A DNA stretch of 64,000 bases from Hemiscyllium ocellatum (GCF_020745735.1 NW_026869102.1:128367-192366), one strand, 5' to 3'. Shown: positions 20,461 through 52,300, numbered from the stretch's first letter. A program made the numbers and translations. The notes: generated by a model from the letters alone, not told the origin.

Positions 20461-20599
20461 GATATAGAGAGAACACAGTGAGAGAGATACAGAGGGGAAA
20501 TACAAAGTGGGAGATGCTGAGGTGGAGAATAAAGAGGGGAGATAGGGAGAATACGGAGGGGTAGATGGGGGAATACCGCGGGGAGATAGAGGGAATGCT

Positions 20600-21190: not shown

Positions 21191-21199
21191 AAACCCAAT

Positions 21200-27100: not shown

Positions 27101-27838
27101 GAGGAGCAGACACAGAGGGGCAGACACAGAGGGGCAGATACAGAGAGGAGCAGACACAGAGGGGCAGACACACAGAGGGGCAGACACAGAGGGGCAGACA
27201 CAGAGGGACAGATACAGAGAGGGGCAGATACAGAGAGGGGCAGACACACAGAGGGGCAGACACACAGAGGGGCAGACACAGAGGGGCAGACACAGAGGGG
27301 CAGACACACAGAGGGGCAGACACACAGAGGGGCAGATACAGAGAGGGGCAGACACACAGAGGGGCAGACACAGAGGGGCAGACACAGAGGGGCAGACACA
27401 GAGAGGGGCAGATACAGAGAGGGGCAGATACAGAGAGGGGCAGATACAGAGAGGGGCAGACACACAGAGGGGCAGACACAGAGGGGCAGACACAGAGAGG
27501 GGCAGATACAGAGAGGGGCAGATACAGAGAGGGGCAGATACAGAGAGGGGCAGACACACAGAGGGGCAGACACAGAGGGGCAGACACAGAGAGGGGCAGA
27601 TACAGAGAGGGGCAGATACAGAGAGGGGCAGACACAGAGAGGGGCAGATACAGAGAGGGGCAGACACAGAGAGGGGCAGATACAGAGAGGGGCAGATACA
27701 GAGAGGGGCAGACACACAGAGGGGCAGATACAGAGAGGGGCAGATACAGAGAGGGGCAGATACAGAGAGGGGCAGACACAGAGAGGGGCAGATACAGAGA
27801 GGGGCAGACACACAGAGGGGCAGACACAGAGGGGCAGA
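21200..27838. repeat. Minisatellite array C: 16-bp unit CAGAGGGGCAGAYACA with 18-bp variants (CAGAGAGGGGCAGACACA, CAGAGGGGCAGACACACA), ~390 copies. Local sub-periodic motifs (e.g. CAGGAGCAGATACAGAGGGGCAGAC) mark higher-order blocks.
   Basis: Direct reading; the + strand is essentially T-free over 6.6 kb. Near-identical stretches recur, e.g. 21430-21800 vs 23040-23400 and 25200-25560. Confidence 0.95.
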
Positions 27839-27934
27839 TAGTGGAATACAGAAGGGGAGAGACGGGCAGAAAGGGAGAACATGGAGGGGGAGATGGGGAT
27901 GATGGAGGAATCCTGTGGGGGAGGCACAGGGGAA

Positions 27935-28205
27935 TACTGAGGGGGAGATGGGGGGGAAATACTGAGGGGGAGATGGGAAATACTGAGGGGGAGATGGGGG
28001 AAATAGTGAGGGGGAGATGGGGGAAATAGTGAGGGAGAGATGGGGAATACTGAGGGGGAGATGGGGGGAATACTGAGGGAGAGATGGGGAATACTGAGGG
28101 GGAGATGGGGGAAATACTGAGGGGGAGATGGGGGAAATACTGAGGGAGAGATGGGGAATACTGAGGGGGAGATGGGGAAATACTGAGGGGGAGATGGGGG
28201 AAATA
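27935..28205. repeat. Minisatellite D: ~23-bp unit TACTGAGGGGGAGATGGGGGAAA, ~11 copies.
   Basis: Direct reading; shares the GAGGGGGAGAT core with arrays A and B. Confidence 0.9.
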
Positions 28206-28919: not shown

Positions 28920-29640
28920 GGGGGGGGGGGGGGATTAGTGTCACAGGGAGAGGGAGAGTGGGACAGGCACACAGGGAGGATCAGTGTCACAGGGAGAGGG
29001 AGAGGGAGAGGGAGAGGGTTACAGGGACACAGAGTGAGAGAGTGAGAGAGTGAGAGAGAGAGAGAGAGAGGGGGACAGGGGTCTGTACACAGGGAGTGAG
29101 TGAGTGAGTGAGTGAGTGAGTGAGTGAGTGAGTGAGTGAGTGAGTGAGTGAGAGAGAGGGACAGGGGTCTGTACACAGGGAGTGAGAGAGAGAGAGAGAG
29201 AGGGACAGGGGTCTGTACACAGGGAGTGAGAGAGAGAGAGAGAGAGGGACAGGGGTCTGTACACAGGGAGTGAGAGAGAGAGAGAGAGAGGGACAGGGGT
29301 CTGTACACAGGGAGTGAGAGAGAGAGAGAGAGGGACAGGGGTCTGTACACAGGGAGTGAGAGAGAGAGAGGGACAGGGGTCTGTACACAGGGAGTGAGAG
29401 AGAGAGAGGGACAGGGGTCTGTACACAGGGAGTGAGAGAGAGAGAGAGGGACAGGGGTCTGTACACAGGGAGTGAGAGAGAGAGAGGGACAGGGGTCTGT
29501 ACACAGGGAGTGAGAGAGAGAGAGGGACAGGGGTCTGTACACAGGGAGTGAGAGAGAGAGAGGGACAGGGGTCTGTACACAGGGAGTGAGAGAGAGAGAG
29601 GGACAGGGGTCTGTACACAGGGAGTGAGTGAGAGGGTCAG
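28920..29640. repeat. Compound minisatellite ~350-1070 bp upstream of the CDIPT ATG: GGGAGAGGGAGAG blocks, then (GTGA)14 at ~29094-29150, then ~12 copies of a 37-45-bp unit GGGACAGGGGTCTGTACACAGGGAGTGAGAGAGAGAG with variable (GA)n.
   Basis: Direct reading; unit starts at about 29158, 29203, 29246, 29291, 29330, 29369, 29408, 29450, 29487, 29524, 29561 and 29598. Confidence 0.9.
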
Positions 29641-29993
29641 AGATTCAGAGAGAGACACATAGATAGACAGAGACACACACAAACATAAGGGACTCTGTCA
29701 TTAAGAGAGAGAGACAGACAGGCACACGCATACAGGGACTCTGACATTGAGAGGAGGTGTGACTCCGAGAGAGAGAGAGACACGTGCACAGATACAGAAA
29801 GAGACTGTCCTTGAAAGGAGGAGAGGCAGAGGCAGACACCAGAGGGACTCTGATATTGAGAGGAGGAACCATCGGAGAGAGGAGGAGAGGCAGAGACTAA
29901 GCCACTGAGCCTTGTGCTCTGAGAAATTCGGTCTCTTGTGAGCCTTGCACTGAGACGGTGACAGAGGGGCTGAGGCTGAGAGAACCCGCCAAC
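29641..29993 (+). promoter_or_regulatory. Putative proximal promoter / 5' UTR of CDIPT. Contains three degenerate copies of GGGACTCTGWYATTRAGAG(A/G)GAG at ~29688, 29733 and 29842, and an in-frame TAA at 29898-29900 upstream of the ATG.
   Basis: Position immediately 5' of the first coding exon; Kozak-like gccaacATGg. No TATA box and no CpG island recognised, so the TSS is not determined. Confidence 0.35.
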
Positions 29994-30030
29994 ATGGTCA
30001 GCGTTTTCCTGTTCGTGCCGAACCTCATTG
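29994..30030 (+). CDS. CDIPT: CDIPT exon 1 (MVSVFLFVPNLIG, phase-1 end); donor GTCAGT at 30031.
   Basis: Matches human CDIPT N-terminus (MPDENIFLFVPNLIGYARIV...). ATG preceded by an in-frame stop; GT donor. Confidence 0.8.
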
Positions 30031-30149
30031 GTCAGTATCCTCCTGTGGATGTATCTGGGGTGGAGAGAGAGGGTGGCTCTAATGGGGGTTTCTAGGTGGA
30101 CGAGTCTCAGACGGTGAGGGATAATGGGGCGGACTTGGCAGTGGGTCTA

Positions 30150-31125
30150 ATTTGATCGGATTTAAGGATTGCCTGGTGTGCGTCGAGCTGAAAAAAACTG
30201 GACTACACCTCCTCCCACCCTGGCCCCACCATCCCATATTCCCAATTCCTTCGTCTCCGCCGCATCTGCTCCCAGGAGGACCAGTTCCAACACCACACAG
30301 CCCAGATGGCCTCCTTCTTCAAAGACTGAGATTCCCCCAGACGTGATCGATGATGCCCTCCACCGCATCTCCTCCACTTCCCGCTCCTCCGCCCTTGAGC
30401 CCCGCTCCTCCAATCGCCACGAGGACAGAACCCCACTGGTTCTCACCTACCACCCCACCAACCTCCGCATACAACGTATCATCCGCCGCCATTTCCGCCA
30501 ACTCCAAACGGACCCCACCACCAGGGATATATTTCCCTCCCCTCCCCTATCAGCGTTCTGAAAAGACCACTCCCTCCGTGACTCCCTCGTCAGGTCCACA
30601 CCCCCCACCAACCCAACCTCCACCCCCGGCACCTTCCCCTGCAACCACAGGAAATGCAAAACTTGCGCCCACACCTCCACACTCACTTCCCTCCAAGGCC
30701 CCAAGGGATCCTTCCATATCCGCCACAAGTTCACCTGTACCTCCACACACATCATCTATTGCATCCGCTGCACCCGATGTGGCCTCCTCTATATTGGGGA
30801 GACAGGCCGCTTACTTGCGGGACGCTTCAGGGAACACCTCTGGGACGCCCGAACCAACCAACCCAACCACCCCGTGGCTCAAAACTTTAACTCTCCCTCC
30901 CACTCCACCGAGGACATGCAGGTCCTTGGACTCCTCCACCGGCAGAACATAACAACACGACGGTTGGAGGAGGAGCGCCTCATCTTCCGCCTGGGAACCC
31001 TCCAACCACAAGGAATGAACTCAGATTTCTCCTGTTTCCTCATTTCCCCTCCCCCCACCTTGTCTCAGTCGGTTCCCTCAACTCAGCACCGCCCTCCTAA
31101 CCTGCAATCCTCTTCCTGACCTCTC
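30150..31125 (+). mobile_element. Penelope-like-element-type retroelement 3' fragment carrying a GIY-YIG endonuclease-like domain (...KCKTCAHTS...FTCTSTHIIYCIRCTRCGLLYIGETGRLLAGRFREHLWD...HSTEDMQVLGLLHRQN...), in CDIPT intron 1. Contains at least one internal stop (SAF*KDHSLRD...).
   Basis: Conceptual translation across ORFs 30169..30561, 30654..30890 and 30874..31119. The IIY...YIGET...R..EH arrangement after a Cys/His-rich linker is characteristic of PLE endonuclease domains. A proline-rich ORF (30350..30952) is the wrong frame of the same element. Confidence 0.5.
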
Positions 31126-31261
31126 CGCCCCCACCCCACTCCGGCCTATCACCCTCACCTTGACCTCCTTCCACCTATCCCATCTCCATCGCCCCTCCCC
31201 CAAGTCCCTCCTCCCTACCTTTTATCTTAGCCTGCTGGACACCCTCTCCTCATTCCTGATG

Positions 31262-31380
31262 AAGGGCTCTGGCCCGAAATGTCGAATTTCCTGTTCCTTG
31301 GATGCTGCCTGACCTGCTGTGCTTTAACCAACAACACATTTTCTGCTCTGATCTCCAGCATCTGCAGACCTCACTTTTTA
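31262..31380 (-). mobile_element. SINE-like element, reverse orientation of the GCTGGAAAAGCACAGCAGGTCAGGCAGCATCCAAGGAACAGGAAATTCGACATTTCGGGC core.
   Basis: Reverse complement of the copy at 31650-31780; the two form an inverted pair ~270 bp apart. Confidence 0.7.
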
Positions 31381-31649
31381 CTCTTTTTTTTTGCTTTAGA
31401 ACAGTCTATTGAGGAGGTTGTCCTGGACTGTGTACTGTGTGCAATGAAAAGGACACATTAACTGGCCCAAAGTTCAGAATGCAGGCAGAGAGGATGATAA
31501 CTGGTCGAGTGGTGAGAGTTAATGCGGTGGGCAGCGTGAAAAGTGACTGTAAAAGTCTCTGTAAATATGGGAAGTGCAAAGTTACTGAAGATGCAAGTGT
31601 TTACGTCCCTTACGTTCAGAAGCTGGGGAAACAAGACTGGGGAGAAAGG

Positions 31650-31780
31650 TGAGGTCTGCAGATGCTGGAGATCAGAGCTGAAAGTGTGTCGCTGGAAAAG
31701 CGCAGCAGGTCAGATCCAAGGAACAGGAAATTCGACGTTTCGGGCATAAGCCCTTCTTCAGGAATGAGGAAATGATATGG
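31650..31780 (+). mobile_element. SINE-like element, forward copy (GAGGTCTGCAGATGCTGGAGATCAGAGCTGAAAGTGTGTCGCTGGAAAAGCGCAGCAGGTCAGATCCAAGGAACAGGAAATTCGACGTTTCGGGCATAAGCCCTTCTTCAGGAATGAGG).
   Basis: Direct reading; shared with five other copies in the window. Confidence 0.7.
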
Positions 31781-31989
31781 GGAACAAAGAGCTGTCAGGA
31801 AAATTACCACAGATTTTCCATTCTGTCTTCACTAATGATGTACACCACTTCCAAGAAATGAGAGGGAGCCCACTGTGTAGGGAGGGGACAGAATACTGGA
31901 ATTCCTTCTGGATGTAGGTTCAGTCACTGAGCTGGGAGGTTCATTTCCAGACGTTTCGTCACCGTACTAGGTAACCTCTTCAGTGACAA

Positions 31990-32160
31990 GATCAGAGTGG
32001 TGCTGGAAAAGCACAGCAGGTCAGGCAGCATCCGAAAAGCAGGAGCATCCACGTTTTGGGCAAAAGCCCTTCGTCAGGAATGGCCCGAAACGTTGATTTT
32101 CCTGCTCCTCGGATGCTGCCTGACCTGCTGTGCTTTTCCAGCACCACTCTAATCTGAAGA
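31990..32160. mobile_element. Foldback (MITE-like) copy of the SINE core: ~65-bp arms in inverted orientation separated by a ~20-bp loop (GTGGTGCTGGAAAAGCACAGCAGGTCAGGCAGCATCCG...//...CGGATGCTGCCTGACCTGCTGTGCTTTTCCAGCACCAC).
   Basis: Right arm is the reverse complement of the left arm, including a perfect 33-bp core. Confidence 0.8.
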
Positions 32161-32429
32161 TGTTACCTGATGGGGTGACGCAATGTCTGGAAATGAACCT
32201 TCCACCTCCGTGAGCGAACCTCTGTCCATAACCTCAACCTGAGTTACAAATCTTCTCCAAACTCGCGAATGGGATTCCTCGTTAGTGGGGGAGATTAAGG
32301 GGCTGAGAGAATGCTTGGCTGAGCCTCTAATGCGACCCAGACAAAACCTGCAGTGGTTTGGGAAAGAATTATACCTAACAAACCTACCAGAGTCTTTTGT
32401 CTGAGGGCATAGCAAGTAGGTAAGGGACA

Positions 32430-33060
32430 ATCGGTCCCTGGTGAGACCACACTTGGAATATTGTGTCCAGTTCTGGTCGCCCTACTATAGGAAAGATACA
32501 GGGGCTTTGGAGAGGATGCAAAGGAGGTTTACCAGGATGCTGCCTGGACTGGAGGGCTTGCCTAATGAAGAAAGGTTGAATAAGCTTGGAGTTTTCTTCC
32601 TGGAGAGAAGGAGGAAGAGAGGGAGACCTGATCGAGGTTTACAAGGGAGTGAGAGGAATAGATAGTCAATAGCCAGAGCCTTTTCCCCAGGGCAGGATTG
32701 ACTGGGACGGGGGGTCATAGTTTTGAAGGTATATAGGAGACGTCAGAGGTAGGTTCTATATGCAGAGAGTTGCGTGCGTGGAATGTATTACCACGGCTGG
32801 AAGCAGAGTCACTGGGGACACTGAAGTGACTGCTGGACATGCAGATGGAGAGCAGGGAGATGAGGGACAGACCAGAAACTGAGTGGGAATAACTGCGGAT
32901 TCACACACGCGCCCAAGGTGACCTGGTGGGGTACTGCAGGGATCGGTGCCAGCATCCTGGCTATTGACAACATTTGGGAGTGACCCAGCTGTGAGAAGGC
33001 TCGACTTGCCAGAGAGAGGGGATGCATCAGATGTTGACCCAGGGGAGGGCAGGGTTAACC
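32430..33060 (+). mobile_element. CR1-like LINE 3' fragment (ORF2 C-terminus [58 protein letters not shown]...), degenerate.
   Basis: Conserved [10 protein letters not shown]...VQRRFTRM...[21 protein letters not shown] block typical of the CR1/L2 clade ORF2 C-terminus. Confidence 0.7.
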
Positions 33061-33364
33061 CCTGAGGTTAGATGGTTCGACTGGCCATGTATCGATCACA
33101 CGTTTCGAGTGATGCGATGGGGAAACTGATCGAAGTGAGTAAAGTCCCAACAGGATGCAGCGAGGATATTTTCCCCTCGAACCAGGGGAAGAAGTCTTGG
33201 GATACAGAATACATCATTCAGGAACACCCACTCGGGAGGGTGGCTGAAGGCTGTGGAGAAAGAGACGCTGAATACTGTCAAGACAAAAAGAAATGTTCAA
33301 ATTTTCAAGGCATCAGGGGTTGGGGGGGAAATAAATATAAAAACATTAAAGCATTGAGATGTGA

Positions 33365-34255
33365 TCTGTGACCAGTGGAGTGCCACAAGGATCGGTGCTG
33401 GGCCCTCTACTTTTCATCATTTATATAAATGACTTGGATGTGAACTTAGAGATAATTAGTAAGTTTGCAGATGACACCAGAATTGGAGGTGTAGGGGACA
33501 GCGAAGAGGGTTACCTCAGATCACAACAGGATCTGGACCAGATGGGCCAAGGAATGGCAGATGGAGTTTATTTTAGATAAATGCGAGGTGTTGCATTTTG
33601 GAAAGGCAGATCAGGGTGGGATTTATCCACTTAATGGTAAGGTCCTAGGGAGTGTTGCTGAACACAGAGACCTTGGAGTGCAGGTTCATAGCTCCTTGAA
33701 AGTGGAGTCTCAGGTAGATAGGATAATGAAGGCGTTTGTAATGCTTTCCTTTATTGGTCAGAGTATTGAGTGGAGGTCATGTTGCGGCTGTACAGGACAT
33801 TGGTTAGGCCACTGTTGGAATATTGTGTGCAATTCTGGTCTCCTCCCTGTCAGAAAGACATTGTGAAATTTGAAAGGGTTCAGAAAAGATTTACAAGGAT
33901 GTTCCCAGGATTGGAGGATCTGAGCTGCAGGGAGAGGCTGAACAGGCTGGGGCTGTTTTCCCTGGAGCGTCGGAGGCTGAGGGGTGACCTTATAGAGGGT
34001 TACAAAATCATGAGGGACGTGGATAGGTCTTTGGGATGGGTGAGTCCAGAACTAGAGGGGCATAGGTCTAAGGTGGGAGGGTAAAGGGACCCAAGGGGCA
34101 ACAGTTTCACCCAGAGGGTGGTACGTGTGTGGAACGAGTTGCCAGAGGAAGTGGAGGAGGCTGGATTTAAAAGGCATCTGGATGGGTATATGAATAGGAA
34201 AGGTTTAGAGTGCCACGTGCTGGTGAATGAGACCGGATTAATTTAGGATATCCTT
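33365..34255 (+). mobile_element. 5'-truncated CR1-like LINE (reverse-transcriptase domains through the ORF2 C-terminus and tail), 100-1000 bp upstream of CDIPT exon 2.
   Basis: Frameshifted across ORFs 33368, 33561 and 33770. Contains [22 protein letters not shown]...[11 protein letters not shown]...KCEVLHFGK...[10 protein letters not shown]...RFTRMFPGLE...LGLFSLERRRLRGDLIEGYKIM...FTQRVVRVWNELPEEVEEAGFKRHLDGYMNRKGLE. Confidence 0.85.
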
Positions 34256-34345
34256 CTGACTCTGTCTCTGTCTCTGTGTCTCTCTGGTTGTCTCTGACGC
34301 TCACACACACGCTGTGTGTGTCTCTCTCTCTCTCTCTGTGTGTTG
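34256..34345 (+). repeat. Pyrimidine microsatellite (CTGTCTCT / TCTC)n at the LINE 3' end, running directly into the exon-2 acceptor TGTGTTGTAG.
   Basis: Direct reading; contiguous with the LINE tail and the splice acceptor. Confidence 0.85.
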
Positions 34346-34348
34346 TAG

Positions 34349-34483
34349 GTTACAGCCGCATCATCCTGGCCCTGATTGCATTTTACTTCATGCCGAGTGA
34401 CCCAGTGTTGGCCACTTGTTTGTACCTGCTCAGCTCCTTCCTGGATTCACTGGACGGACATGCTGCCCGGTTGCTGAACCAAT
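34349..34483 (+). CDS. CDIPT: CDIPT exon 2 (-YSRIILALIAFYFMPSDPVLATCLYLLSSFLDSLDGHAARLLNQ-); acceptor TTGTAG at 34343-34348, donor GTAAGA at 34484.
   Basis: Aligns to human YARIVFAIISFYFMPCCPLTASSFYLLSGLLDAFDGHAARALNQ. The DG..AR start of the CDP-alcohol phosphotransferase motif is present; phases are consistent. Confidence 0.9.
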
Positions 34484-34765
34484 GTAAGACTTTCAGAGCG
34501 ATGTTTCAGAGTGGGGCTGGGGGGGGGGGCACGTGGGGCAACATTTGGTTTAGACCCGCTCCCTGTGTCATGTGTCCCTGAGTGCAGTGAAAAGTTGTGT
34601 TTTCTGAGCAGTACAGGCAGACCATGACAAACAAGGAGATACAGAGGAGCTAGGCGTTCAGCGTACACTGCGCAGGAGATGTGCAGAACAAGATGAGCTT
34701 TGAAATTAGAGCGATCCGTTCAGCAGTTTGATAACAGCAGGGGAAGGAGCTGTTCTTGAACCTGC

Positions 34766-34768
<3 letters not shown>

Positions 34769-34807
<39 letters not shown>
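34769..34807. repeat. (TG)19 microsatellite in CDIPT intron 2.
   Basis: Direct reading. Confidence 0.95.
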
Positions 34808-34809
<2 letters not shown>

Positions 34810-35267
34810 AAGCTTCTGTATCCTCTCCCTGGTGGAACTGTTTGGAAGAGAGGGGTGGGAGATGTCTTTGAGGACACTGTCTGCCTTCCCGTGGAAGTGG
34901 AGTCTGTGGTTAGCTCATGTGATGGTCTGAGCTGTGCTCACCACCTTCTGTAATTTCTCACGGTCCTGGGGCAGATCCGTCGCTGTCCCAGACTGTGATA
35001 CATCCGGACAGCGGGTTTTCCGTGGTGCCTCTGTGGAAAGCTGGTGAGGATCTTGGTGGACGTGCGGGATTTGCTGAGCCTCCTGAGGTGTTATTGTGCC
35101 GTCTTCAGCATCACATCTACGTGGGGAGACGAGGACGGGTGCCGGAGGGAGACCAGGGGGCTGAGGCCCTTTAGATGCAAGCTAATTGCTGCTGTTTTAG
35201 TGTGTTGTTCTCTCTCTCTCCCACTCCCACTCCCACTCCCACTTTTCCACCCCCCATCTCTGCACAG

Positions 35268-35421
35268 GCAGCAAGTTTGGAATGATGTTGGATATGTTGA
35301 CTGACCGATGTGCCACCATGTGTTTGCTGGTGAATCTCTCCCTCCTGTACCCTCGTTACGTCTTCCTATTTCAGCTCAGTATGATCCTGGACATCAGCAG
35401 TCACTGGTTACACTTACACAG
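35268..35421 (+). CDS. CDIPT: CDIPT exon 3 (CSKFGMMLDMLTDRCATMCLLVNLSLLYPRYVFLFQLSMILDISSHWLHLH-); acceptor CACAG at 35267, donor GTCAGT at 35422.
   Basis: Aligns to human GTRFGAMLDMLTDRCSTMCLLVNLALLYPGATLFFQISMSLDVASHWLHLH. Completes motif G...D...D; reading frame verified codon by codon. Confidence 0.9.
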
Positions 35422-35544
35422 GTCAGTGACATTGAACCGAATCCCTACACACCTCCCTGGACACCAGCTCCGACCCCTCCCGGCACGGCATGGGTCCCCT
35501 GGATATCGTCTCTCCCCTTGGGGTATGGGTCCCACAAAATACCA

Positions 35545-35720
35545 GCCCTGCTCCCCACGGGAAACAGGCCAAAGACACCACCTGGGGAGCGGTTTGAGGG
35601 GAGGACCAGGGGAAACAGGCCAAAGACACCACCTGGGGAGCGGTTTGAGGGGAGGACCAGGGGAAACAGGCCAAAGACACAACCTGGGGAGTGGTTTGAG
35701 GGGAGGACCAGGGGAAACAG
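35545..35720. repeat. 51-bp tandem repeat x3 (GAAACAGGCCAAAGACACCACCTGGGGAGCGGTTTGAGGGGAGGACCAGGG), ~120 bp into CDIPT intron 3.
   Basis: Unit starts at 35561, 35612 and 35663. Confidence 0.9.
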
Positions 35721-35789
35721 GCAGAGAATGGAGCCCGAGGGGAAGACCATGGAGATGCAGCACAAGAATGGGGCCTGGGGGTCGGTTCC

Positions 35790-36700
35790 TGGAGTGGACC
35801 AGGAGGAAAACAGGCCGAGAGTGGGGCCTGAGGGGAGAGGACCGGGGGAGGAACAGGCCGAGAGTGGGGCCTGAGGGGAGAGGACCGGGGGAGGAACAGG
35901 CTGAGAGTGGGGCCTGAGGGGAGAGGACCGGGGGGGGGGGCGGGGGAGAGAACAGGCCGAGAGTGGGGCCTGAGGGGAGAGGACCGGGGGAGGAACAGGC
36001 CGAGAGTGGGGCCTGAGGGGAGAGGACCGGGGGAGGAACAGGCCGAGAGTGGGGCCTGAGGGGAGAGGACCGGGGGAGGAACAGGCCGAGAGTGGGGCCT
36101 GAGGGGAGAGGACCGGGGGAGGAACAGGCCGAGAGTGGGGCCTGAGGGGAGAGGACCGGGGGAGGAACAGGCCGAGAGTGGGACCTGAGGGGAGAGGACC
36201 GGGGGAGGAACAGGCCGAGAGTGGGGCCTGAGGGGAGAGGACCGGGGGGGGGGGCGGGGGAGAGAACAGGCCGAGAGTGGGGCCTGAGGGGAGAGGACCG
36301 GGGGGGGGGCGGGGGAGAGAACAGGCCGAGAGTGGGGCCTGAGGGGAGAGGACCGGGGGGAGAACAGGCCGAGAGTGGGGCCTGAGGGGAGAGGACCGGG
36401 GGGAGAACAGGCCGAGAGTGGGGCCTGAGGGGAGAACAGGCCGAGAGTGGGGCCTGAGGGGAGAGGACCGGGGGGGGGGGGCGGGGGAGAGAACAGGCCG
36501 AGAGTGGGGCCTGAGGGGAGAGGACCGGGGGGGGGCGGGGGAGAGAACAGGCCGAGAGTGGGGCCTGAGGGGAGAGGACCGGGGAGAGAACAGGCCGAGA
36601 GTGGGGCCTGAGGGGAGAGGACCGGGGGGAGAACAGGCCGAGAGTGGGGCCTGAGGGGAGAACAGGCTGAGAGTGGGGCCTGAGGGGTCAGGTTGAGCGG
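35790..36700. repeat. GC-rich 43-bp minisatellite (GAACAGGCCGAGAGTGGGGCCTGAGGGGAGAGGACCGGGGGAG), ~18 copies. Some copies are expanded by G10-G11 runs (GGGGGGGGGGGCGGGGGAGA).
   Basis: Direct reading: period 43 between 35821 and 35864, with longer units where poly-G is inserted. The minus-strand proline-rich 469-aa ORF is an artefact. Confidence 0.9.
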
Positions 36701-36740
36701 AGGACCCTTGCTAATCCCAGTTTCCTGGTCTCCTCTCCAG

Positions 36741-36822
36741 CACCATGATGACGGGGAGCAGCAGCCATAAGAAGATTGACCTGAGTGGAAATCCCATCCT
36801 CCGTGTTTACTACACCAATGTG
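36741..36822 (+). CDS. CDIPT: CDIPT exon 4 (STMMTGSSSHKKIDLSGNPILRVYYTNV); acceptor CTCCAG, donor GTAAGG at 36823.
   Basis: Aligns to human SSVVRGSESHKMIDLSGNPVLRIYYTS; phase 2 in, phase 0 out. Confidence 0.85.
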
Positions 36823-37214
36823 GTAAGGTCACTGTCTGTCAGCGAGGGGGTGGGCTGTGGGGGGGAGAGCCACCTTCTCACACCACAATAAATAGGAGCA
36901 GGAATAGACCATTCGGCCCCTCGAGCACCCTGTTGTGCCTGATCCGACATTCCTCGTGTCCGTGGTCCTGCCCTTTCTGCCTCTAGCCCTTTGTTCCCGA
37001 CTGGTCAGGAATCTCTCTATCTCAGCCAGAAACGTACACGAGGACTCTGACACACACGCACACGCGCGCACACACGCGAAGAAATTCCTCCCCATCTCAG
37101 TCCAACATTGGAGCCTCTCTGTCCTGAGGCTGTTCCCTCTGGTCATACCGACTCCCGTGAGAGGAGAAATGTTTCAATGAGATCCCCTCTCACTCCTCCA
37201 AACCCAGGGAGCAG

Positions 37215-37450
37215 GGTCCCACACCGTTAACTGTGTGAAGTTTAAGGGGGATACCGAGGGTGGTGGGTGTCTGGAACGTGTTACCGACAGAAGTAGGCAC
37301 AGTAGATTCATTTAAGGTAGATCTGGACAGATGCGTGAGTAGGTGGGAGCAGAGGGACACAGATCCTTAGGAATTGGGTTTAGACGGTGAATTCGGATCG
37401 ACTCCGGTTGGAGGGCCGAAGGGCCTGTTCCTGGGCTGTAGGTTTTTCTT
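37215..37450 (+). mobile_element. CR1-like LINE 3' end fragment (ORF2 C-terminus ...FKGDTEGGGCLERVTDRSRHSRFI... plus tail ...GGAGGGCCGAAGGGCCTGTTCCTGGGCTGTAGG).
   Basis: Homology to the tail family seen at 28205, 38830 and 41410. Confidence 0.55.
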
Positions 37451-37599
37451 TGTACTTTGCCCATTAAAACAGTCCCTCCATCCTGGGGGCTAATCCTAGT
37501 GAACCCTGTCTAGGCTGCTTCCCGTGAAATGTTATCTCCCCTCGAGTAAGGAGGGGAACCCAAACTGCTCGCGGTACTCCAGGTCTCACCAGCACCTGG

Positions 37600-37760
37600 G
37601 AGAAAGTGAAGACTGCAGATGCTGGAGGGCAGAGACGGGAGTGGGCGGTGCTGGAAAAGCGCAGCAGGTCAGGCAGCATCTGGGCAGCAGGAGAGGTGGC
37701 ACTTCATCCCCAAACCCTTCCTCAGCTGCTGCCTGACCTGCTGTGCTTTTCCAGCACTTT
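37600..37760. mobile_element. Foldback SINE-core hairpin (GTGCTGGAAAAGCGCAGCAGGTCAGGCAGCATCTG...CAGCTGCTGCCTGACCTGCTGTGCTTTTCCAGCAC) in CDIPT intron 4.
   Basis: Inverted arms read directly. Confidence 0.8.
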
Positions 37761-37849
37761 GTCCCCTTGCCAACCTAATCTGTGTGGAGTTTGCACATTC
37801 TCCCCGCGTCTGCGTGGGTTTCCTCCATAACCCTCCGCTTCCTCCCACA

Positions 37850-38190
37850 CTCCAAAGATGTACAGGTTAGGGTGGGATTGGCTGTGGGGAAATTGTCCCG
37901 TAGTGCCCTGGGATGTGCAGGTTAGGGTGGGATCGGCCATGGGGAAATTGTCCCGTAGTGCCCAGGGATGTACAGGTTAGGGTGGGATTGGCCGTGGGGA
38001 AATTGTCCCGTAGTGCCCTGGGATGTGCAGGTTAGGGTGGGATTGGTCGTGGGGAAATTGTCCCGTAGTGCCCAGGGATGTGCAGGTTAGGGTGGGATTG
38101 GCCGTGGGGAAATTGTCCCGTAGTGCCCAGGGATGTACAGGTTAGGGTGGGATTGGCCGTGGGGAAATTGTCCCCTGGTGCCCAGGGATG
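37850..38190. repeat. 55-bp tandem repeat x6 (TGCAGGTTAGGGTGGGATTGGCCGTGGGGAAATTGTCCCGTAGTGCCCAGGGATG).
   Basis: Unit starts at 37861 and 37916 and continues. Resembles an internally expanded retroelement 3' tail; followed by a tail terminus ...GGGCGAAGGGCCTCTTTCCACGCTGTAGGGAATCTGA at 38190-38330. Confidence 0.85.
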
Positions 38191-38469
38191 TGCGGGTCAG
38201 GTGCGTTAGTCAGGGGGTAAACGTGGGAATGGGTCTAGGCGGGATACTCTTCGGAGGGTAAGTGTGGACTTGTTGGGGCGAAGGGCCTCTTTCCACGCTG
38301 TAGGGAATCTGACTTCACCCCCTCAGTCTGTCACTTCCCTCTGTAATCTGCAGCGTTCCTGTCTGGTCTCACCCATCCTTTACCCCTTCCCCACCATCCC
38401 AGTAACCTGAGCACATCCCAAACACTGCAGCCTCCTGCCCCTTTCTCCCCCTTTCCTGTTACTGACTTC

Positions 38470-38640
38470 AGAATGAAAGTCTCTGTCTCTCTCTCTCTGT
38501 CTCTCTCTCTCTCTGTCTCTCTCTCTCTCTGTCTCTCTCTCTCTCTGTCTCTCTCTCTCTCTGTCTCTCTCTCTCTCTGTCTCTCTCTCTCTCTGTCTCT
38601 CTCTCTCTCTGTCTCCCCCTGTTTCTCTTGTGTTGTGAAA
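38470..38640. repeat. (GTCTCTCTCTCT)n pyrimidine-rich 12-bp simple repeat, ~12 copies.
   Basis: Direct reading. Confidence 0.95.
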
Positions 38641-39075
38641 CTTTTTCCGACGATGTCGGAGGGTTTGAGCTCGGAGGAGAGGCTGAGGCTGTTTTCCATG
38701 GGGTTTCGGAGACTGAGGGGTGACGAGGGGCATGGATAGGGTGAATAGAGAAGGTCTTTTCCCCCTGCGATGGGGGAGTCCTGAACTAGAGGAATATAGG
38801 TTTAAGATAAGAGGGGGAAAGATATAAAAGGGACCTAAGGGGTAACTTTTTCACCCAGAGGGTTGTACGTGTATGGAATGAGCTGCCAGAGGGAGTGGTG
38901 GAGGCTGGTACGACTGCAACATTTAAGGGGCGTTTGGGTGGGTATAGGAATAGGAAGGGTTTGGTGGGATAGAGGCCGGGTGCTGGCAGGTGGGAATGGA
39001 TTGGGTTGGGATAACTGGGTCAGCACGGACAGGTTGGACCGAAGGGTCTGTTTCCGTGCTGTACATCTCTATGAA
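38640..39075 (+). mobile_element. CR1-like LINE 3' fragment (..ERLRLFSMGFRRLRGD.. then GNFFTQRVVRVWNELPEGVVEAGTTATFKGRLGGYRNRKGL, then full 3' tail).
   Basis: Translation plus tail identity with 28205-28400. Confidence 0.75.
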
Positions 39076-39149
39076 TGTGTGACAGGGACAGCACGGGGTT
39101 AGATACAGAGTAAAGCTCCCTATAATGAGGGATATAGAGGGTCTCCTCC

Positions 39150-39250
39150 ATTAAACACTCATAGGCCAGATGGGTTTAGTGGGATATGGGACTAGATTAG
39201 GTTCGGATATCTGGGTCAGCATGGACGGGTTGGGCCGAAGGGTCTGTGAC
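39150..39250 (+). mobile_element. Additional LINE 3' tail fragment (GGGTTTAGTGGGATATGGGACTAGATTAGGTTCGGATATCTGGGTCAGCATGGACGGGTTGGGCCGAAGGGTCTGTGACTGTG).
   Basis: Tail homology. Confidence 0.55.
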
Positions 39251-39439
39251 TGTGAGATCCTAAAGCTGGAGAAGCAGCTGTTTAAATCCTGGGTTAAAAT
39301 GTAGACATAGGATTCAGAGTAGGCTATTCTGGTCTTGCTGTGATATTCCGTTTGATCACGGCCTATCCTTTATCCTGTTGTTACATGGAGATTTTTACCA
39401 GGTGTCTGATATTTTCCCTGTGTTTCTGTTCTTCCTCAG

Positions 39440-39521
39440 AAAGTCCTATTTGTGATGTGTGCCGGTAATGAGCTCTTTTACGCGATGCTTTACCTCTTGA
39501 GTTTCATGGAGGGTCCTGTAG
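39440..39521 (+). CDS. CDIPT: CDIPT exon 5 (KVLFVMCAGNELFYAMLYLLSFMEGPV-); acceptor CCTCAG, donor GTAGGT at 39522.
   Basis: Aligns to human ALFTLCAGNELFYCLLYLFHFSEGPLV. Confidence 0.85.
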
Positions 39522-39669
39522 GTAGGTATTCACTTCCTGAGCAGCGATGGAACCCAAGTCGTCTGTGTTGCGCGTCTGTGTTGCGCGTGTGCGATTGGCT
39601 TGAAGCAGGTCTGGAATCTGAAACCACTCTGCTTCCCCACCCCACCCCATCCCCTTTTGTGGGGTCCTG

Positions 39670-40262
39670 GGGAAATGTCTGAACAAAGAGACCTTGGAGT
39701 GCAAGTTCATAGCTCCTTGAAAGTAGATAGGATAGTGAAGGCGTTTGTAATGCTTTTCTTTATTGGTCAGATATTGAGTACAGGAGTTGGGAGGGTCATG
39801 TTGCGGCTGTACAAGACATTGGTTAGGCCACTGTTGGAATATTGCGTGCATTTCTGGTGTCCCTCCTATCGGAAAGATGTTGTGAAACTTGAAAAGGTTC
39901 AGAAAAGATTTACAAGGATGTTGCCAGGGTTGGAGGGTGTGAGCTATAGGGATTGGCTGAACAGGCTGGGGCTGTTTTCCCTGGAGCGTCGGAGGCTGAG
40001 GGGTGACCTTATAGAGGTTTACAAAATTATGAGGGGGATGGATAGGGGAAATAGGCAAAGTCTGTTCCCTAGGGTCAGGGAGCCCAGAACTAGCGGGGCA
40101 TAGGTCCCTTTTATATCTTTCCCCTCTCACCCTAAACCTAAGGGGTAACTTTTTCACCCAGAGGGTGGTACGTGTATGGAATGAGCTGCCAGAGGAAGTG
40201 GTGGAGGCTGGTACGACTGCAACATTTTAAGGGGGGTTTGGATGGGTATAGGAATAGGAAAG
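39670..40262 (+). mobile_element. CR1-like LINE 3' portion immediately downstream of CDIPT exon 5 (RDLGVQVHSSLKV...[73 protein letters not shown]...FSPRGWYVYGMSCQRKWWRLV...).
   Basis: ORF 39600..40103 plus tail. Confidence 0.85.
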
Positions 40263-41410
40263 GTTTGTAGTGTACATGGATTTTAGTAAGGCATTTGATA
40301 AGGTTCCCCATGGTAGGCTTATGCGGAAAGTCAGGAGGCATGGGATAGTGGGAAATTTGGCCAATTGGATAGAAAACTGGCTAACCGGTCGAAGTCAGAG
40401 AGTGGTGGTAGATGGTAAATATTCAGCCTGGAGCCCAGTTACAAGTGGAGTTCCGCAGGGATCAGTTCTGGGTCCTCTGCTGTTTGTAATTTTTATTAAT
40501 GACTTGGATGAGGGAGTCGAAGGGTGGGTCAGTAAATTTGCAGATGATACGAAGATTGGTGGAGTTGTGGATAGTGAGGAGGGCTGTTGTCAGCTGCAAA
40601 GGGACTTAGATATGATGCAGAGCTGGGCTGAGGAGTGGCAGATGGAGTTCAACCCTGCCAAGTGTGAGGTTGTCCATTTTGGAAGAACAAATAAGAATGC
40701 GGAATACAGGGTTAACGGTGGGTTCTTAGTCAGGTGGAGGAACAGAGGGATCTTGGGGTCTATGTACATAGATCTTTGAAAGTTGCCACTCAGGTGGATA
40801 GAGCTTGTAAGAAGGCCTATGGTGTATTAGCGTTCATTAGCAGAGGGATTGAATTCAAGAGTCGTGAAGTGATGTTGCAGCTGTACAGGACTTTGGTTAG
40901 GCCACATTTGGAGTACTGTGTGCAGTTCTGGTTGCCTCACTTTAGGAGAGATGTGGAAGCTTTGGAGAGGGTGCAGAGAAGATTTACCAGGATGTTGCCT
41001 GGAATGGAGAATAGGTCATACGAGGATAGGTTGAGAGTTCTCGGCCTTTTCTTGTTGGAACGGCGAAGGATGAGGAGTGACTTGATAGAGGTTTATAAGA
41101 TGATCAGAGGAATAGATAGAGTTGACAGTCAGAAACTTTTTCCCCGGGTACAACAGAGTGTTACAAGGGGACATAAATTTAAGGTGAAGGGTGGAAGGTA
41201 TAGGGGAGATGTCAGGGGTGGGTTCTTTACCCAGAGAGTGGTGGGGGCATGGAATGCGCTGCCCGTGGCAGTGGTAGAGTCAGAATCATTGACTACCTTT
41301 AAGCGGCAATTGGATAGGTACATGGATGGGTGCTTAATCTAGGATAGATGTTCGGCACAACATCGTGGGCCGAAGGGCCTGTTCTGTGCTGTATTGTTCT
41401 ATGTTCTATG
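40263..41410 (+). mobile_element. 5'-truncated CR1-like LINE with a nearly complete RT domain (FSKAFDKVPH...[22 protein letters not shown]...SKFADDTKIGG...KCEVVHFGR...[72 protein letters not shown]...FFTQRVVGAWNALP...FKRQLDRYMDG). Ends in (TTCTATG)2.
   Basis: ORFs 40270..40779 and 40734..41342 (one frameshift). Inserted head-to-tail directly after the previous LINE fragment. Confidence 0.9.
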
Positions 41411-41590
41411 TTTGGAGGGATAGAGGCCAGGTGCTGGCAGGTGGGAATGGATTGGGTTGGGATAACTGGGTCAGCACGGACAGGTTGGACCGAAGGGTCT
41501 GTTTCCGTGCTGTACATCTCTATGACTTGATGGGACGAATGGCCTGTGCGTGAGAGACCAGCAGGCAATGCAATGGGCTGAACAGCCACA
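41410..41590 (+). mobile_element. LINE 3' tail fragment plus downstream tail-associated sequence (…CTCTATGACTTGATGGGACGAATGGCCTGTGCGTGAGAGACCAGCAGGCAATGCAATGGGCTGAACAGCC).
   Basis: Identity with 28270-28440. Confidence 0.7.
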
Positions 41591-42889
41591 GCACCCCACT
41601 CTCTGAGCTCCTCACCGACCTGGTGAATATATCGGCCATTCCTTCCTGGGTCAGAATCCCAGGATTCCCTCCCTCCCTTGGGGTCTACCCACAACAAGGG
41701 GACTGCAGTGGTTCGATGGGGCAGCTCAGACCCACCTTCTCAGGGGGGCAACTAGGGATGGGGGGCAACTAGGGACGGGGCGATAAATACTGCACCCAGT
41801 ATTTATTCATTTATTTTAAATGATTCTGGTTCAGTCCCTGAACCACTAAACCCTGCAAGACCACAGGCTGGGATGGGTGGCTAGTTTATTCAGGCAATCC
41901 AGAGCCAATGGGCTGAGTGGCCTCTCTCCGCTGTCTCGCTGGGGGTAACAGCCCAAGAATTGAACCGCACTGATCCTAGTGTCCTCACGGCTGTGAGGGT
42001 TTTGTAAATAGTCCCCGATATACCTGACTTTCCGAGACAGACTGCCAGGAAAACACACATCCGGACTCTGTGTTCTGAACAGGAAATTTCAATTCGTTGC
42101 AAATAATTAATTTGCCCATCGCTGAATCCTATCTTCACCCATCGGAAGTTAAAGCTCTTTTTAACCCCCGATAAAATTCCTGCTCCACAATCCTATGACC
42201 ATACAACAGAAACGTTGGTGTCATGGACAGAGGGAAGACCGGGAGGGAAGCTCAATAGGACCTGACCAATGAGATTCACTGAAATAACTGTCAGGAACTC
42301 CTGCTGCACCGTCCCCTTCCTTCAGAACGTCTTCTCACTTCCCTCCAGGGTGTGGAGGTGTCGGCGTTGGACGGGGGTGGACAAAGTTTAAAAATCACAC
42401 AACACCAGGTTATAATCCAACAGGTTTATTTGGAAGCACTAGCTTTCGGATCGCTGCTCCTTCATCAGGTGGTTGTGAAGGTATAAGATTGTAAGACACA
42501 GAATTTATAGCAACAGTTTACAGTGTGCAGTAGCTGAAATTATACCCTGAAAAAGACCTGGATTGTTTTAGTCTCCCATCATTTCAAATGACCATGTTGG
42601 TTTCAGTTCTTTCATATGTAAATGCCAGAGCTTTTTAAAAAAAAAATCTACATTCTCAAGTGAACTTGTAACAGTTGGTGTCATGTCGGCCCAGAGAATG
42701 TATTGAAGGTGTGAGCTTCCCTGTGTGAGGCTGTCTGTACCACAACGGTCAGACTGATTCTAATCGATAAAAATGGATTTTCAGAATTTTACATGGATTC
42801 ATGCAGTTTTTGAGCAAAGTAAAATGTAATTCTGTAAGTACAAATTCACCCGTGTGTGTGAGTGTGTGTGTGTGAAGGAGGTGGCACAG

Positions 42890-43880
42890 TGTGACTGGTT
42901 CACAACTTGTGAAGTCTCTCATTTATTGGATGAAAGCAACCAGATACAGTAATGGACAGGGGGTGGGGTGGGACAAACGGGTTTATTTTCCAGCAGAATT
43001 TCCCCCCCACCGCAGAAATGGTTTCTTCCCTTGGCTTCTGGATGTCCTTTTCACTCCCAGTTACCTGGGAATTAATCTCATGGTGATCGGAAGGCAGATG
43101 GAACTTTATCCTTTGTTGCTAAAGGGGATTATGGAGTTTAAAAGTGGGGAGGTTATGTTGCAGCCCTACAACATCCTGGTAAGGGCACACCTGGAATACT
43201 GCGTGCACTTTTGATCTCCAGAATTAAAAATGGATGTACTTGGAGTGGAGTGGAGTGGATGCAGAGGAGGTTCACTGAGTTGATTCCTGGAGTTGGAGAC
43301 AGTGAGGTTGGCAGACGTTGGAGATCAGTGTTGTGTGTATTGCTGGAAAAGCACAGCAGGTCAGGGAGCATCCTTTCCTGATGAAGGGTCGTGTCTGAAA
43401 CGTTGGCTCTGATGCTCCTCGGATGCTGCCTGACCTGCTGTGCTTTTCCAGCAAGACACTCTCGACTCTGATTCCAGAGTTGGCTGAGTAGACTGGGATT
43501 ACATTCATTTGAGTTTAGAATGAGGGGACCTTTATAGAAACATATGAAATGATGAAGGGAATCGAGAAGATAAGAAGCAGGGAGGTTATTTCCACTGGAG
43601 GGTGAAACTAGAACTAGGGGCGTAGCCTCCAAATAAGGGGGAGCAGAGTTCGGACTGAGCGGAGGAGGAACCCAGAGGGTTATGAGGTGGTGGGATTCCC
43701 TGGCCAGTGAAGAGCTACAGGGAGAGGCTGGGGCTGTTTTCCCTGGAACATCGGGGGCTGAGGCATGACCTTATAGAGGTTTATAAAATCATGAGGGGGC
43801 ATGGATAGGGTTAATGGCAGCCCTTTTTCCCCTGGGTGGGGGGGGATTTGAAGTCTAGGGGAGCAGTCTTAAGGTGAGAG
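42890..43880 (+). mobile_element. Old, degenerate CR1-like LINE 3' fragment (..EVMLQPYNILVRAHLEYCVHF.. then, beyond the inserted foldback, ..ETYEMMKGIEKIRSREV.. and ..GLFSLEHRGLRHDLIEVYKIMRGHG..). Interrupted by the foldback element at 43300-43465.
   Basis: Weak but recognisable ORF2 C-terminal motifs in translation. Confidence 0.5.
43300..43465. mobile_element. Foldback SINE-core hairpin (TTGCTGGAAAAGCACAGCAGGTCAGGGAGCATCC...GGATGCTGCCTGACCTGCTGTGCTTTTCCAGCAA), inserted into a degenerate LINE in CDIPT intron 5.
   Basis: Inverted arms read directly. Confidence 0.8.
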
Positions 43881-43934
43881 GGGAGAGATTTAATAAAGAC
43901 GGGGGGGGGGGCAGCTTTGACAAAGGGTTAGTTA

Positions 43935-44040
43935 GACTCAACGTCAGCTCTTTTCTCTGACGTTGCTGCCAGACCTGCTGAGTTTTTCCAGCATTTTCTC
44001 TTTTTTTTTGGTTTCAGATTCCAGCATCTGCAGTAATTTG
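43935..44040 (-). mobile_element. Partial SINE-like copy, reverse orientation (GCTGCCAGACCTGCTGAGTTTTTCCAGCA...CAGATTCCAGCATCTGCAG).
   Basis: Similarity to the other copies; degraded. Confidence 0.5.
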
Positions 44041-44069
44041 TTTTTACCTTTTTTTTTAATGAACAGGAA

Positions 44070-44165
44070 AGGGTTTGGAGGGATACGGGTCAGGAGCTGG
44101 GGCAGGTGTGGGACTAGGGAGCAGTTTGGCCGAAAGATCTGTTTCTGTGCTGTGCGACTCTGAGA
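44070..44165 (+). mobile_element. LINE 3' tail remnant (…GGAGCAGTTTGGCCGAAAGATCTGTTTCTGTGCTGTGCGACTCTGAG) ~170 bp upstream of the last CDIPT exon.
   Basis: Tail homology. Confidence 0.5.
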
Positions 44166-44333
44166 GAGCCACAGTTCAGAGTCCAAAAAAAGGCAGAATA
44201 TTTCAAAGCTGGGGTTGTTTGATACAGTGCTGCGGGTGTCTCCTGGTTCAGGCTGGAAGGTTGGGTGTAGTTCTCGAGATGGACTCCCGGCTCTCTGCTG
44301 CTCGATTGTAATCCCGGTTCTGTCTGTCCACAG

Positions 44334-44503
44334 TACCTCTCCTGAATATAGGCCTGTTCCAACTCCTGCTGTACAGTTCCTTCCCGATCTGCCTCATCAA
44401 AACAGCCATCAGCATCGTCCACCTGATCACAGCATCTCGCAACATGGCGGCCATAGACCAAGCAGAGGGTGAGAGGGGCCTTACAACCTGTAAGCTGGAC
44501 TGA
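44334..44503 (+). CDS. CDIPT: CDIPT terminal coding exon (-VPLLNIGLFQLLLYSSFPICLIKTAISIVHLITASRNMAAIDQAEGERGLTTCKLD*); acceptor TGTCCACAG, stop TGA at 44501-44503.
   Basis: Aligns to human VGLFRMGLWVTAPIALLKSLISVIHLITAARNMAALDAADRAKKK. The last ~14 aa diverge; an alternative GTGAGA donor at 44469 could splice to a further exon. Confidence 0.75.
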
Positions 44504-44698
44504 ACGCCAACAGGAACGTGTATCTCCCCCCCCCACCACCTCACCAACCTCAACAGTGTGTCCCAGTCCAAGGAAACTATCCCAGTGCTATTCTGCACCC
44601 TCTGTGTGTCCGTGTGAGAAATGACAGGCACCTTCCCCCCTATTCCTGCTGCCAAGTGCAGCCACTTACTGAAGGAAATGTTTTACCGGAGATGTGTT

Positions 44699-44704
44699 AA
44701 TAAA
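44699..44704 (+). promoter_or_regulatory. AATAAA candidate polyadenylation signal ~195 nt after the CDIPT stop.
   Basis: Hexamer read directly (gtgttAATAAAcctgtcc); first canonical signal downstream of the stop. Confidence 0.45.
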
Positions 44705-46019
44705 CCTGTCCAGCATTGAGAGTCGTCTCAATGTCTTTGCGATGATAAAGTGGAGTGGGCCGCAGTGGGACAGACAGAGAGAGGGTGTGGGTGCGGGTGG
44801 AGAGGCTGTGTGGCCGTGTGAAAGGAGAGGAAACCGATCTCTGTCCAAAGGAATGTTTGTTCCTCACCCTCCCACCGCCTCTGGCTATAATCTCAGCCTC
44901 TGTTCGCGACTCCGCTTGGGAGGGGAATCGGCAGGAACGTTGGTGACGGATAATACCAATGTCCGAGTTACCTCTGCCTCAGTGCACAGAGAAGGGAGGG
45001 AATTAACCTCTTCCCACTCTCTTTATATCTCCCTCGTTCCCCATCTCACGCTCTCTCTCTCGCGTGTTTTCTCTCTTGTATTCTCTCTCACGCTCTCTTT
45101 CCCCCCCCTCCAATTCCTCTCTCGATGTGACTGTGACAGGTGGAAAGTGCTGACAATCCAGCCACCCCCTCCCTCCCACCCCCTTCCTCAAGTCACACTA
45201 TTGATGGGTTTACTGTCAAACAGTGAAGCAGCCCATTGCTTTCCTCTGGGTCTCCTATCCAGAGAGAAAGGAATGTAGGTCTGGCTTCTCGCGTGAGGAC
45301 CCATTTGTCTGTTCGCTGTAATCGGAGCTTATTCTGAAATTAACGTTGTGTAGACTGGTTAGGTTCTGAGCTGTGTATCTCCTCCATCTCACAACAGAAA
45401 CAGTCGTGATGCAATAAGGCAAGAGGTGATTGTTAAAGTGCAAAAGGGGAATAAGATCCTAGCCCACATGAATAGAATATGATGTTTCCTCACATCTACT
45501 GTTTCTCGTGTTGATGATGTCGAATAGCTGGTAAATGGGGCCAGTTCTGATCACAATGACCTTGGGTCCGAGTCTATTCCAGTCTTACCAAGTTGACAGA
45601 AATATTGATCTTTGAAAACTCTTACCAGGTTCCTCAGTAACTTGTACTGGGAACAGGGTTTCAGGAGTAAAACTTGCAGCTTCTATCTCCCATATTGGAC
45701 TGTAAATGGGGTCTGAAATGCCAAATTCTCAAGCCAGGCTGGGTTTCTAGGCAACAGTTACCAAAGGTAACAAGCCCTACCTAAGGTGGGGTTTCCCAAG
45801 GCAGAGGGTTATCCGAAGGGCATGCATGGGAAGTATTTCAGTTAATCAAATACCGGTTAACACAGTTGGCCACGCACCGGGACATGGCGATCTTGTTCAG
45901 ATTGTCCGAAGATAATCGAGGTTCCTCTGTACTCAAAACATTAAGCCATGTCTGTTATCTCTTCGAAAGTTCTTTGCTTGGCTGTTTCTTCAAAGTTATT
46001 TTTTTTTCAAATTCACTGC

Positions 46020-49745: not shown

Positions 49746-50007
49746 AGGTCAGTGCCAGGCAATGGTGCTCACCTTGCAGAGCTAGTACCAGCAGAGTGGG
49801 CCGAATAGCCTGTGCTAGAACACGTCAGTAAAGGCCAGGCACTGGGATCCATGTCTAATACCAGGAGGAGAGATCAACCCCTCACTGTTACCCGGTTACT
49901 CCTGGTTTTGCTCTGTCTCGTTCTTCCCTTTTACAGGAGACATTCCCACCACAGGCAAGGAATTCCTGCCGAGGGGAACACGTCTCCTAACAGGGAGGTG
50001 GGGGGAG

Positions 50008-52210: not shown

Positions 52211-52254
52211 CTTGGCCACGTGACCTGTGTGTGTGAGCTCTTTGTTATGAGGAG

Positions 52255-52258
52255 GGAG

Positions 52259-52292
<34 letters not shown>

Positions 52293-52300
52293 CATTTACA
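52255..52300. repeat. (GT)11(GA)8 compound microsatellite.
   Basis: Direct reading. Confidence 0.9.

Follow-up and report, generated by a model that had tools for sequence, protein, structure and literature searches.

A CDIPT (phosphatidylinositol synthase) gene in an island of ordinary sequence between large tandem arrays of the Hemiscyllium ocellatum (epaulette shark) genome

CDIPT is the gene for phosphatidylinositol synthase, and in a 64,000-nucleotide stretch of the genome of the epaulette shark, Hemiscyllium ocellatum (GCF_020745735.1, NW_026869102.1:128367-192366; hereafter, at its full length, the window), a complete copy had been predicted at positions 29994-44704, between large blocks of satellite. 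We consider it almost certain that this segment is a single-copy, functional CDIPT gene of a hemiscylliid shark, and what is demonstrated here is the structure of the gene, the family to which it belongs, its orthology and the purifying selection on it. The gene has already been annotated, the 219-amino acid product being identical at 219 of 219 residues to the RefSeq CDIPT of H. ocellatum (XP_060679280.1, P0122), and the exons of the original prediction are those of the existing RefSeq coding model. The gene itself is thus nothing new, as it is an annotated epaulette-shark CDIPT with the standard vertebrate structure. Its one unusual feature is its isolation amid tens of kilobases of tandem repeats. 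The locus is of modest value for this context, in which a gene that is essential for lipid synthesis, and that purifying selection strongly constrains, is enclosed by arrays that are positionally conserved across two shark genera.

The six coding exons had been predicted to be joined by canonical splicing with consistent phases, and this proved correct to the base. All of the borders are AG or GT, and the joined exons form a reading frame of 660 nt that runs from ATG to TGA with 0 internal stops and encodes 219 amino acids; the window has 0 Ns and a + strand that is strongly G- and A-rich. Using bat CDIPT as the query in a tblastn search of the 64-kb window, the same six segments were recovered (exon 3 with 78% identity, E=3e-25) and none besides, so that the window holds no second CDIPT-like segment. 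A processed pseudogene was ruled out by the presence of five introns, since a copy that retains its introns has not been processed.

That the product is CDIPT, as had been predicted, is supported by its identity to the RefSeq protein, its Pfam family, its catalytic motif and an exon structure of mammalian type. Pfam gave a single match, to the CDP-alcohol phosphatidyltransferase family (CDP, cytidine diphosphate; PF01066, residues 7-96, 59.2 bits where the cut-off is 22, E=8e-16), and the CDP-alcohol phosphotransferase motif is retained as DSLDGHAARLLNQCSKFGMMLDMLTD at residues 45-70, where a regular expression for the signature D(x)2DG(x)2AR(x)8G(x)3D(x)3D picked out D45, D48, G49, A52, R53, G62, D66 and D70. 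A large protein search gave 708 matches at E <= 1e-20, of which the best 120 were listed; PF01066 is present in 120 of these 120, and every source name among them that specifies a function is CDP-diacylglycerol--inositol 3-phosphatidyltransferase. The top match is a 219-amino acid protein of Chiloscyllium punctatum with 93% identity, XP_060679280.1 falls in the same cluster, and the CDIPTs of chimaera, sturgeon, newt, coelacanth, frog, mammal, turtle and carp are 64-75% identical at a coverage of 93-100%. The closest relatives among the listed matches are CDIPT proteins. Moreover, an alignment of 14 sequences has 71 invariant columns and the shark product conforms in all 71, and the scores against the equivalogs of NCBIfam for prokaryotes (PgsA, PssA, PIP synthase and others) are all far under their cut-offs, as those of a eukaryotic CDIPT would be.

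AlphaFold2, given the 14-sequence alignment, produced an all-helical model with seven helices (predicted local distance difference test, 76; predicted template modelling score, 0.74). In Foldseek every one of the top matches in the PDB is a CDP-alcohol phosphotransferase (7drk, 7drj, 4mnd, 7b1k, 4o6m, 6h5a and 5d92), with template modelling scores of 0.55 and 0.63 for 7drk and 7drj at a probability of 1.00, although with E-values of only about 2e-3. There is no eukaryotic CDIPT structure among the PDB matches found by sequence or by fold; those found by sequence, whether the query was the protein alone or a profile, are distant family members only. By homology, the 219-amino acid product would be a multi-pass membrane enzyme of the endoplasmic reticulum (ER), belonging to the CDP-alcohol phosphotransferase family, and would catalyse the conversion of CDP-diacylglycerol and myo-inositol to phosphatidylinositol and cytidine monophosphate, with a divalent metal presumably held by the aspartates of the DxxDGxxAR...G...D...D motif. 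It is from the family that we infer the catalytic activity, ER location and expression of shark CDIPT.

Orthology and selection were assessed by comparison with the C. punctatum locus (L001, 34.8 kb taken from a 317-kb contig) and with a bat CDIPT gene (L002). L001 is colinear with 28.2-53.5 kb of the window, and the lengths and splice dinucleotides of the six exons are identical. On the basis of the BLAST chain, identity across the locus is 84%, and that of the exon 1 pair is 97%. A global pairwise alignment of the introns gave 88-90% identity, but this figure is inflated by the gapping out of divergent parts and the BLAST chain was preferred. The two shark coding sequences have a nonsynonymous divergence (dN) of 0.040 and a synonymous divergence (dS) of 0.30, giving a dN/dS of 0.13; 20 of the 56 differences are nonsynonymous where 43.5 would be expected (binomial p=2e-11), the differences are distributed 6/12/38 over the codon positions, and divergence at four-fold sites is 0.21. 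Purifying selection acts on the CDIPT coding sequence. In addition, the exon lengths of 37/135/154/82/82/170 nt in the shark compare with 43/135/154/82/82/146 nt in the bat, with phases 1,1,2,0,1 in both. Taken together, the colinearity, the dN/dS and the bat-like exon structure indicate a functional ortholog and argue against a decaying duplicate.

The gene is isolated in some 22 kb of ordinary sequence (28.2-50.0 kb), an island with large arrays on either side. The satellite of about 28 kb that had been predicted upstream is indeed present, with arrays accounting for 27,318 bases, or 96.9%, of positions 1-28205, and the tandem repeats predicted downstream cover 12,826 bases of 50002-64000 (91.6%), with the last array running past the end of the window. 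This description can be refined, as the upstream block consists of at least four arrays (a 37-bp satellite in two variants, a 16-bp and a 23-bp) and the downstream block of three (31-, 74- and 51-bp), leaving a spacing of 1.8 kb upstream and 5.5 kb downstream between arrays and gene. The short units are repeated head-to-tail over long distances, about 20 kb for the 37-bp unit, 6.5 kb for the 16-bp unit and at least 11 kb for the 51-bp unit. In C. punctatum the arrays follow the same order, with a 36-bp purine-rich satellite upstream, a minisatellite before the ATG and then 31/30-bp, 74-bp and 51-bp arrays downstream, and its 36-bp satellite contains the same GGGGGAGAT and GGGGAATACTGAG-type modules. 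As two independent assemblies agree, the arrangement of arrays is real and older than the split between Hemiscyllium and Chiloscyllium, the arrays having been present in the common ancestor of the two genera. Furthermore, the modules shared by the 37-bp, 23-bp and C. punctatum 36-bp units suggest one satellite family that was remodelled into different periods.

A number of observations weigh against a working housekeeping CDIPT. Residues 58, 59 and 63, which are invariant in ten non-chondrichthyan orthologs, are changed here within the spacer of the motif, G58C and T59S being common to three sharks and A63M found in hemiscylliids only (window 35268-35285, exon 3); chimaera retains the ancestral residues. 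The 5' end of CDIPT lacks a clear CpG island, the observed to expected CpG ratio (CpG o/e) near the ATG being 0.35-0.5, and the one CpG peak close to that end, at 30251-30500, falls in a transposon insertion in intron 1. The usual neighbours of CDIPT, SEZ6L2 and MVP, are absent from the window, for which 64 kb may be too short in a 4-Gb genome, and the start site, the ends of the untranslated regions (UTRs) and expression are at the level of prediction. The altered residues would fit a shark-specific paralog of changed substrate or activity, as would the finding that identity to the shark Pristiophorus (74%) is not above that to chimaera (73-75%). However, the three substitutions lie outside the motif-defining residues, all of which are kept, the invariant columns are matched in full, the exon structure is that of mammalian CDIPT, and no second, more canonical cluster of elasmobranch CDIPT occurs among the best 120 of the 708 matches. 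We give this paralog very little credence.

Even less probable is a duplicate left in satellite heterochromatin, where it decays or has been silenced, with the working CDIPT elsewhere in the genome. The satellite flanks, the small contig and the 5' end without a CpG island are what such a copy might show, but the open reading frame and ten splice sites are intact in two species, the introns are kept, the low dN/dS is that of a constrained gene, the promoter-proximal block and polyadenylation (polyA) signal are conserved and, among the top matches, there is one CDIPT for H. ocellatum and one locus, with two isoforms, for C. punctatum. It could also be argued that the satellite context is an artefact of assembly, with repeats mis-joined to or collapsed around the gene contig, since the contig is small in both assemblies and long arrays are difficult to assemble. 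Against this, the independent C. punctatum assembly has the same order of arrays at colinear positions, although the exact lengths of the arrays may still be wrong, and we regard an artefact as improbable. We thus return to a single-copy, functional CDIPT lying between genuine arrays, the features of which are given in Table 1.

Table 1. Position of the CDIPT exons, gene ends, tandem arrays and retroelements in the window (L001, C. punctatum locus).
Feature	Position	Strand	Details
CDIPT coding exon 1	29994..30030	+	37 nt, start gccaacATGG, GT donor, ends phase 1
CDIPT exon 2	34349..34483	+	135 nt, AG/GT borders; motif part 1, D45 to Q57
CDIPT exon 3	35268..35421	+	154 nt; motif remainder, C58 to D70
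CDIPT exon 4	36741..36822	+	82 nt; borders, C. punctatum and bat comparison
CDIPT exon 5	39440..39521	+	82 nt; borders, C. punctatum and bat comparison
CDIPT exon 6, coding part	44334..44503	+	170 nt, TGA at 44501-44503
Probable promoter-proximal / 5'UTR interval	29634..29993	+	92% identity at positions aligned to C. punctatum
Proximal 3'UTR	44504..44704	+	ends in AATAAA 44699-44704
Possible alternative terminal mini-exon	45398..45417	+	20 nt, about 0.9 kb downstream; orthologous to the final exon in C. punctatum isoform X2
37-bp satellite variant A, GATACAGTGAGGGAGATAGGAGGATTATTGAGGGGGA	1..12002		78% purine on + strand
37-bp satellite variant B, GGGGAATACTGTGGGGGAGATACAAAGGGGAAGAGAG	13239..20499		95% copy-to-copy matches, 83% purine
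16-bp satellite, CAGAGGGGCAGACACA	21331..27838		about 420 copies
23-bp array, GGGGAGATGGGGGAATACTGAG	27895..28205		modules common to 37-bp satellites and C. punctatum 36-bp satellite
38-bp minisatellite	29054..29634		360 bp before ATG; orthologous 28-bp array in C. punctatum
31-bp array	50002..51149		syntenic with L001 29622-30193
74-bp array	51523..52210		syntenic with L001 31250-32531, units 90-96% identical
51-bp satellite	53011..64000		>200 copies, continues past window; same unit at L001 33307-34808+
Penelope-like retroelement tail (putative), intron 1	30184..31388	+	GIY-YIG endonuclease remnant, PF01541 23.1 bits against cut-off 22.6
LINE (long interspersed nuclear element) reverse-transcriptase fragment, intron 5	40270..41342	+	RVT_1, E=2e-25

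Conservation also marks the ends of the gene. The 360-bp interval before the ATG contains an island of 97% identity to C. punctatum at 29656-29805, compared with the locus average of 84%, and this conserved interval is likely to comprise the promoter and 5'UTR. At the other end, the predicted limit of 44704 is the last base of an AATAAA, and this hexamer, together with the sequence around it, aligns to C. punctatum at L001 position 24050. A second, alternative 3' end may be available through an internal donor in exon 6 (G/GTGAGA, after base 44468), which could be joined to the mini-exon at 45398 with an acceptor CAG and the frame intact, giving a product of 214 amino acids that ends in DQAE/ETVVMQ and a stop. 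A 100-bp block of at least 95% identity to C. punctatum (45306-45405) spans the acceptor of the mini-exon and the bases upstream of it, and from this and the C. punctatum isoform we infer that the mini-exon may be used in H. ocellatum.

The arrays have some further properties of composition. The purine-rich strand of the upstream arrays (78-83% A+G, with a GC skew of up to 0.89) is the coding strand of CDIPT. Variant B is free of stops in three minus-strand frames over 7.7 kb, which is a trivial effect of composition. Despite their G-richness, the satellites contain no canonical G-quadruplex motifs (loops <=7); in the span of the gene, 29994-44503, the coding strand carries 9 G-quadruplex-type motifs and the other strand 5. 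G-rich minisatellites of 43-bp and 55-bp units lie in introns 3 (35555-36687) and 4 (37857-38201), at positions that are conserved in C. punctatum. Between the 37-bp and 16-bp satellites there is a unique island of 831 bp (20500-21330), which is GC-rich with a CpG o/e of up to 0.88, occurs once in the window and matches nothing in the 34.8 kb of the C. punctatum locus. This island was considered as an upstream exon or promoter of CDIPT, but no link to the gene could be made and its counterpart is absent from the C. punctatum locus.

CDIPT had been described as the only convincing gene in the 64 kb, and the remaining content of the window agrees with this. Open reading frames of at least 130 amino acids are satellite read-through, overlaps with CDIPT exons or transposon remnants, or have no family match, and a scan of ten non-satellite frames gave one match, to the LINE reverse-transcriptase fragment of Table 1. 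The insertion in intron 1 is 1.2 kb long, absent from C. punctatum and terminated by the GIY-YIG remnant, and has a + frame reading …IIYCIRCTRCGLLYIGETG… with one in-frame stop; on these features it looks like a 5'-truncated Penelope-like retroelement. One LINE family is present in several copies, at 33366-34252, 39659-40270, 40270-41342 and 46435-47330 (introns 1 and 5, and downstream), as the reverse-transcriptase fragment and as 3' tails about 0.9 kb long, and occurs at least six times in the 35 kb of the C. punctatum locus. The full 64 kb gave no matches when scanned for tRNAs and against Rfam at gathering thresholds.

As to the chromosomal setting, both shark CDIPT genes are found on small contigs, of 430 kb in H. 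ocellatum and 317 kb in C. punctatum, and telomeric repeats, (TTAGGG)n, are absent from the window and from L001. The H. ocellatum assembly contains 1937 minor scaffolds beside the large ones (PMC10587355), and published analyses report an enrichment of simple tandem repeats on the short chromosomes of sharks and towards chromosome ends (PMC10620051) and, for the epaulette shark, numerous regions of 50-100% tandem repeat (bioRxiv 10.1101/2025.06.08.657570). The small contigs, the lack of telomeric repeats and the published trend are compatible with the pericentromeric, subtelomeric or microchromosomal heterochromatin setting that had been suggested. The satellite setting is an instance of a described genome trend, and the gene itself is already known. 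Among the best 120 of the 708 CDIPT matches, the only elasmobranchs are H. ocellatum, C. punctatum and a partial sequence of Pristiophorus japonicus. There is also no bird among the same best 120. Assemblies or annotations of these groups may often miss the locus, giving rise to the scarcity of elasmobranch and bird CDIPT among the listed matches.

A broader hypothesis, which we put forward tentatively and think unlikely, is that hemiscylliid CDIPT is an expressed housekeeping island in a satellite domain of hundreds of kilobases, with array positions kept since before the generic split (four-fold divergence about 0.2) and the SEZ6L2-CDIPT-MVP neighbourhood broken or greatly stretched. If true, this setting would explain the small contigs and might explain why no more than three elasmobranchs are found among the best 120 matches, and the locus would provide a test case for promoter activity at 1.8 kb from a 28-kb purine-rich satellite. 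The residual novelty lies in the possible consequences of an island within satellite for expression, for assembly and for the apparent scarcity of elasmobranch CDIPT records. At satellite-flanked loci assemblies break and genes drop out of annotations, which calls for caution in claims of gene absence in sharks.

It remains to place the gene among known systems. The prokaryotic CDP-alcohol phosphotransferases (PgsA, 7drj and 7drk; IPCT-DIPPS, 4mnd; PIP synthases, 5d92 and 6h5a) share with it the Pfam family, the motif and, according to the model, the helical membrane fold, but differ in having only 14-19% identity and other alcohol acceptors. Bat CDIPT (P0027, representative of a 231-member cluster) is much closer, with 64-65% identity over 95% of the length and the same motif, internal exon lengths and phases, whereas its coding span is 2.3 kb compared with 14.5 kb in the shark and its C-terminus reads ...ERAKKK rather than ...GERGLTTCKLD. 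The bat gene is also closely flanked, within 10 kb, by MVP and by a Sushi/CUB-domain gene, which from its position we take to be SEZ6L2 (human 16p11.2), while the flanks of the shark gene consist of nothing but repeats for 30 kb upstream and for 20 kb downstream. XP_060679280.1 of H. ocellatum is the same gene with no difference in the protein, recorded on a contig of 430,011 bp. The closest comparison from another species is the C. punctatum gene (XP_072423574.1, and isoform X2, XP_072423575.1), which differs by 16 amino acids, at 93% protein identity and a dS of about 0.3, and in the length of intron 4 (2.6 kb in the window, 6.9 kb in C. punctatum) and intron 5 (4.8 and 1.2 kb, respectively) through insertions or deletions, but has the same exon lengths and splice sites, colinear introns and flanks, and related arrays, and also shares the polyA signal and the alternative terminal exon.

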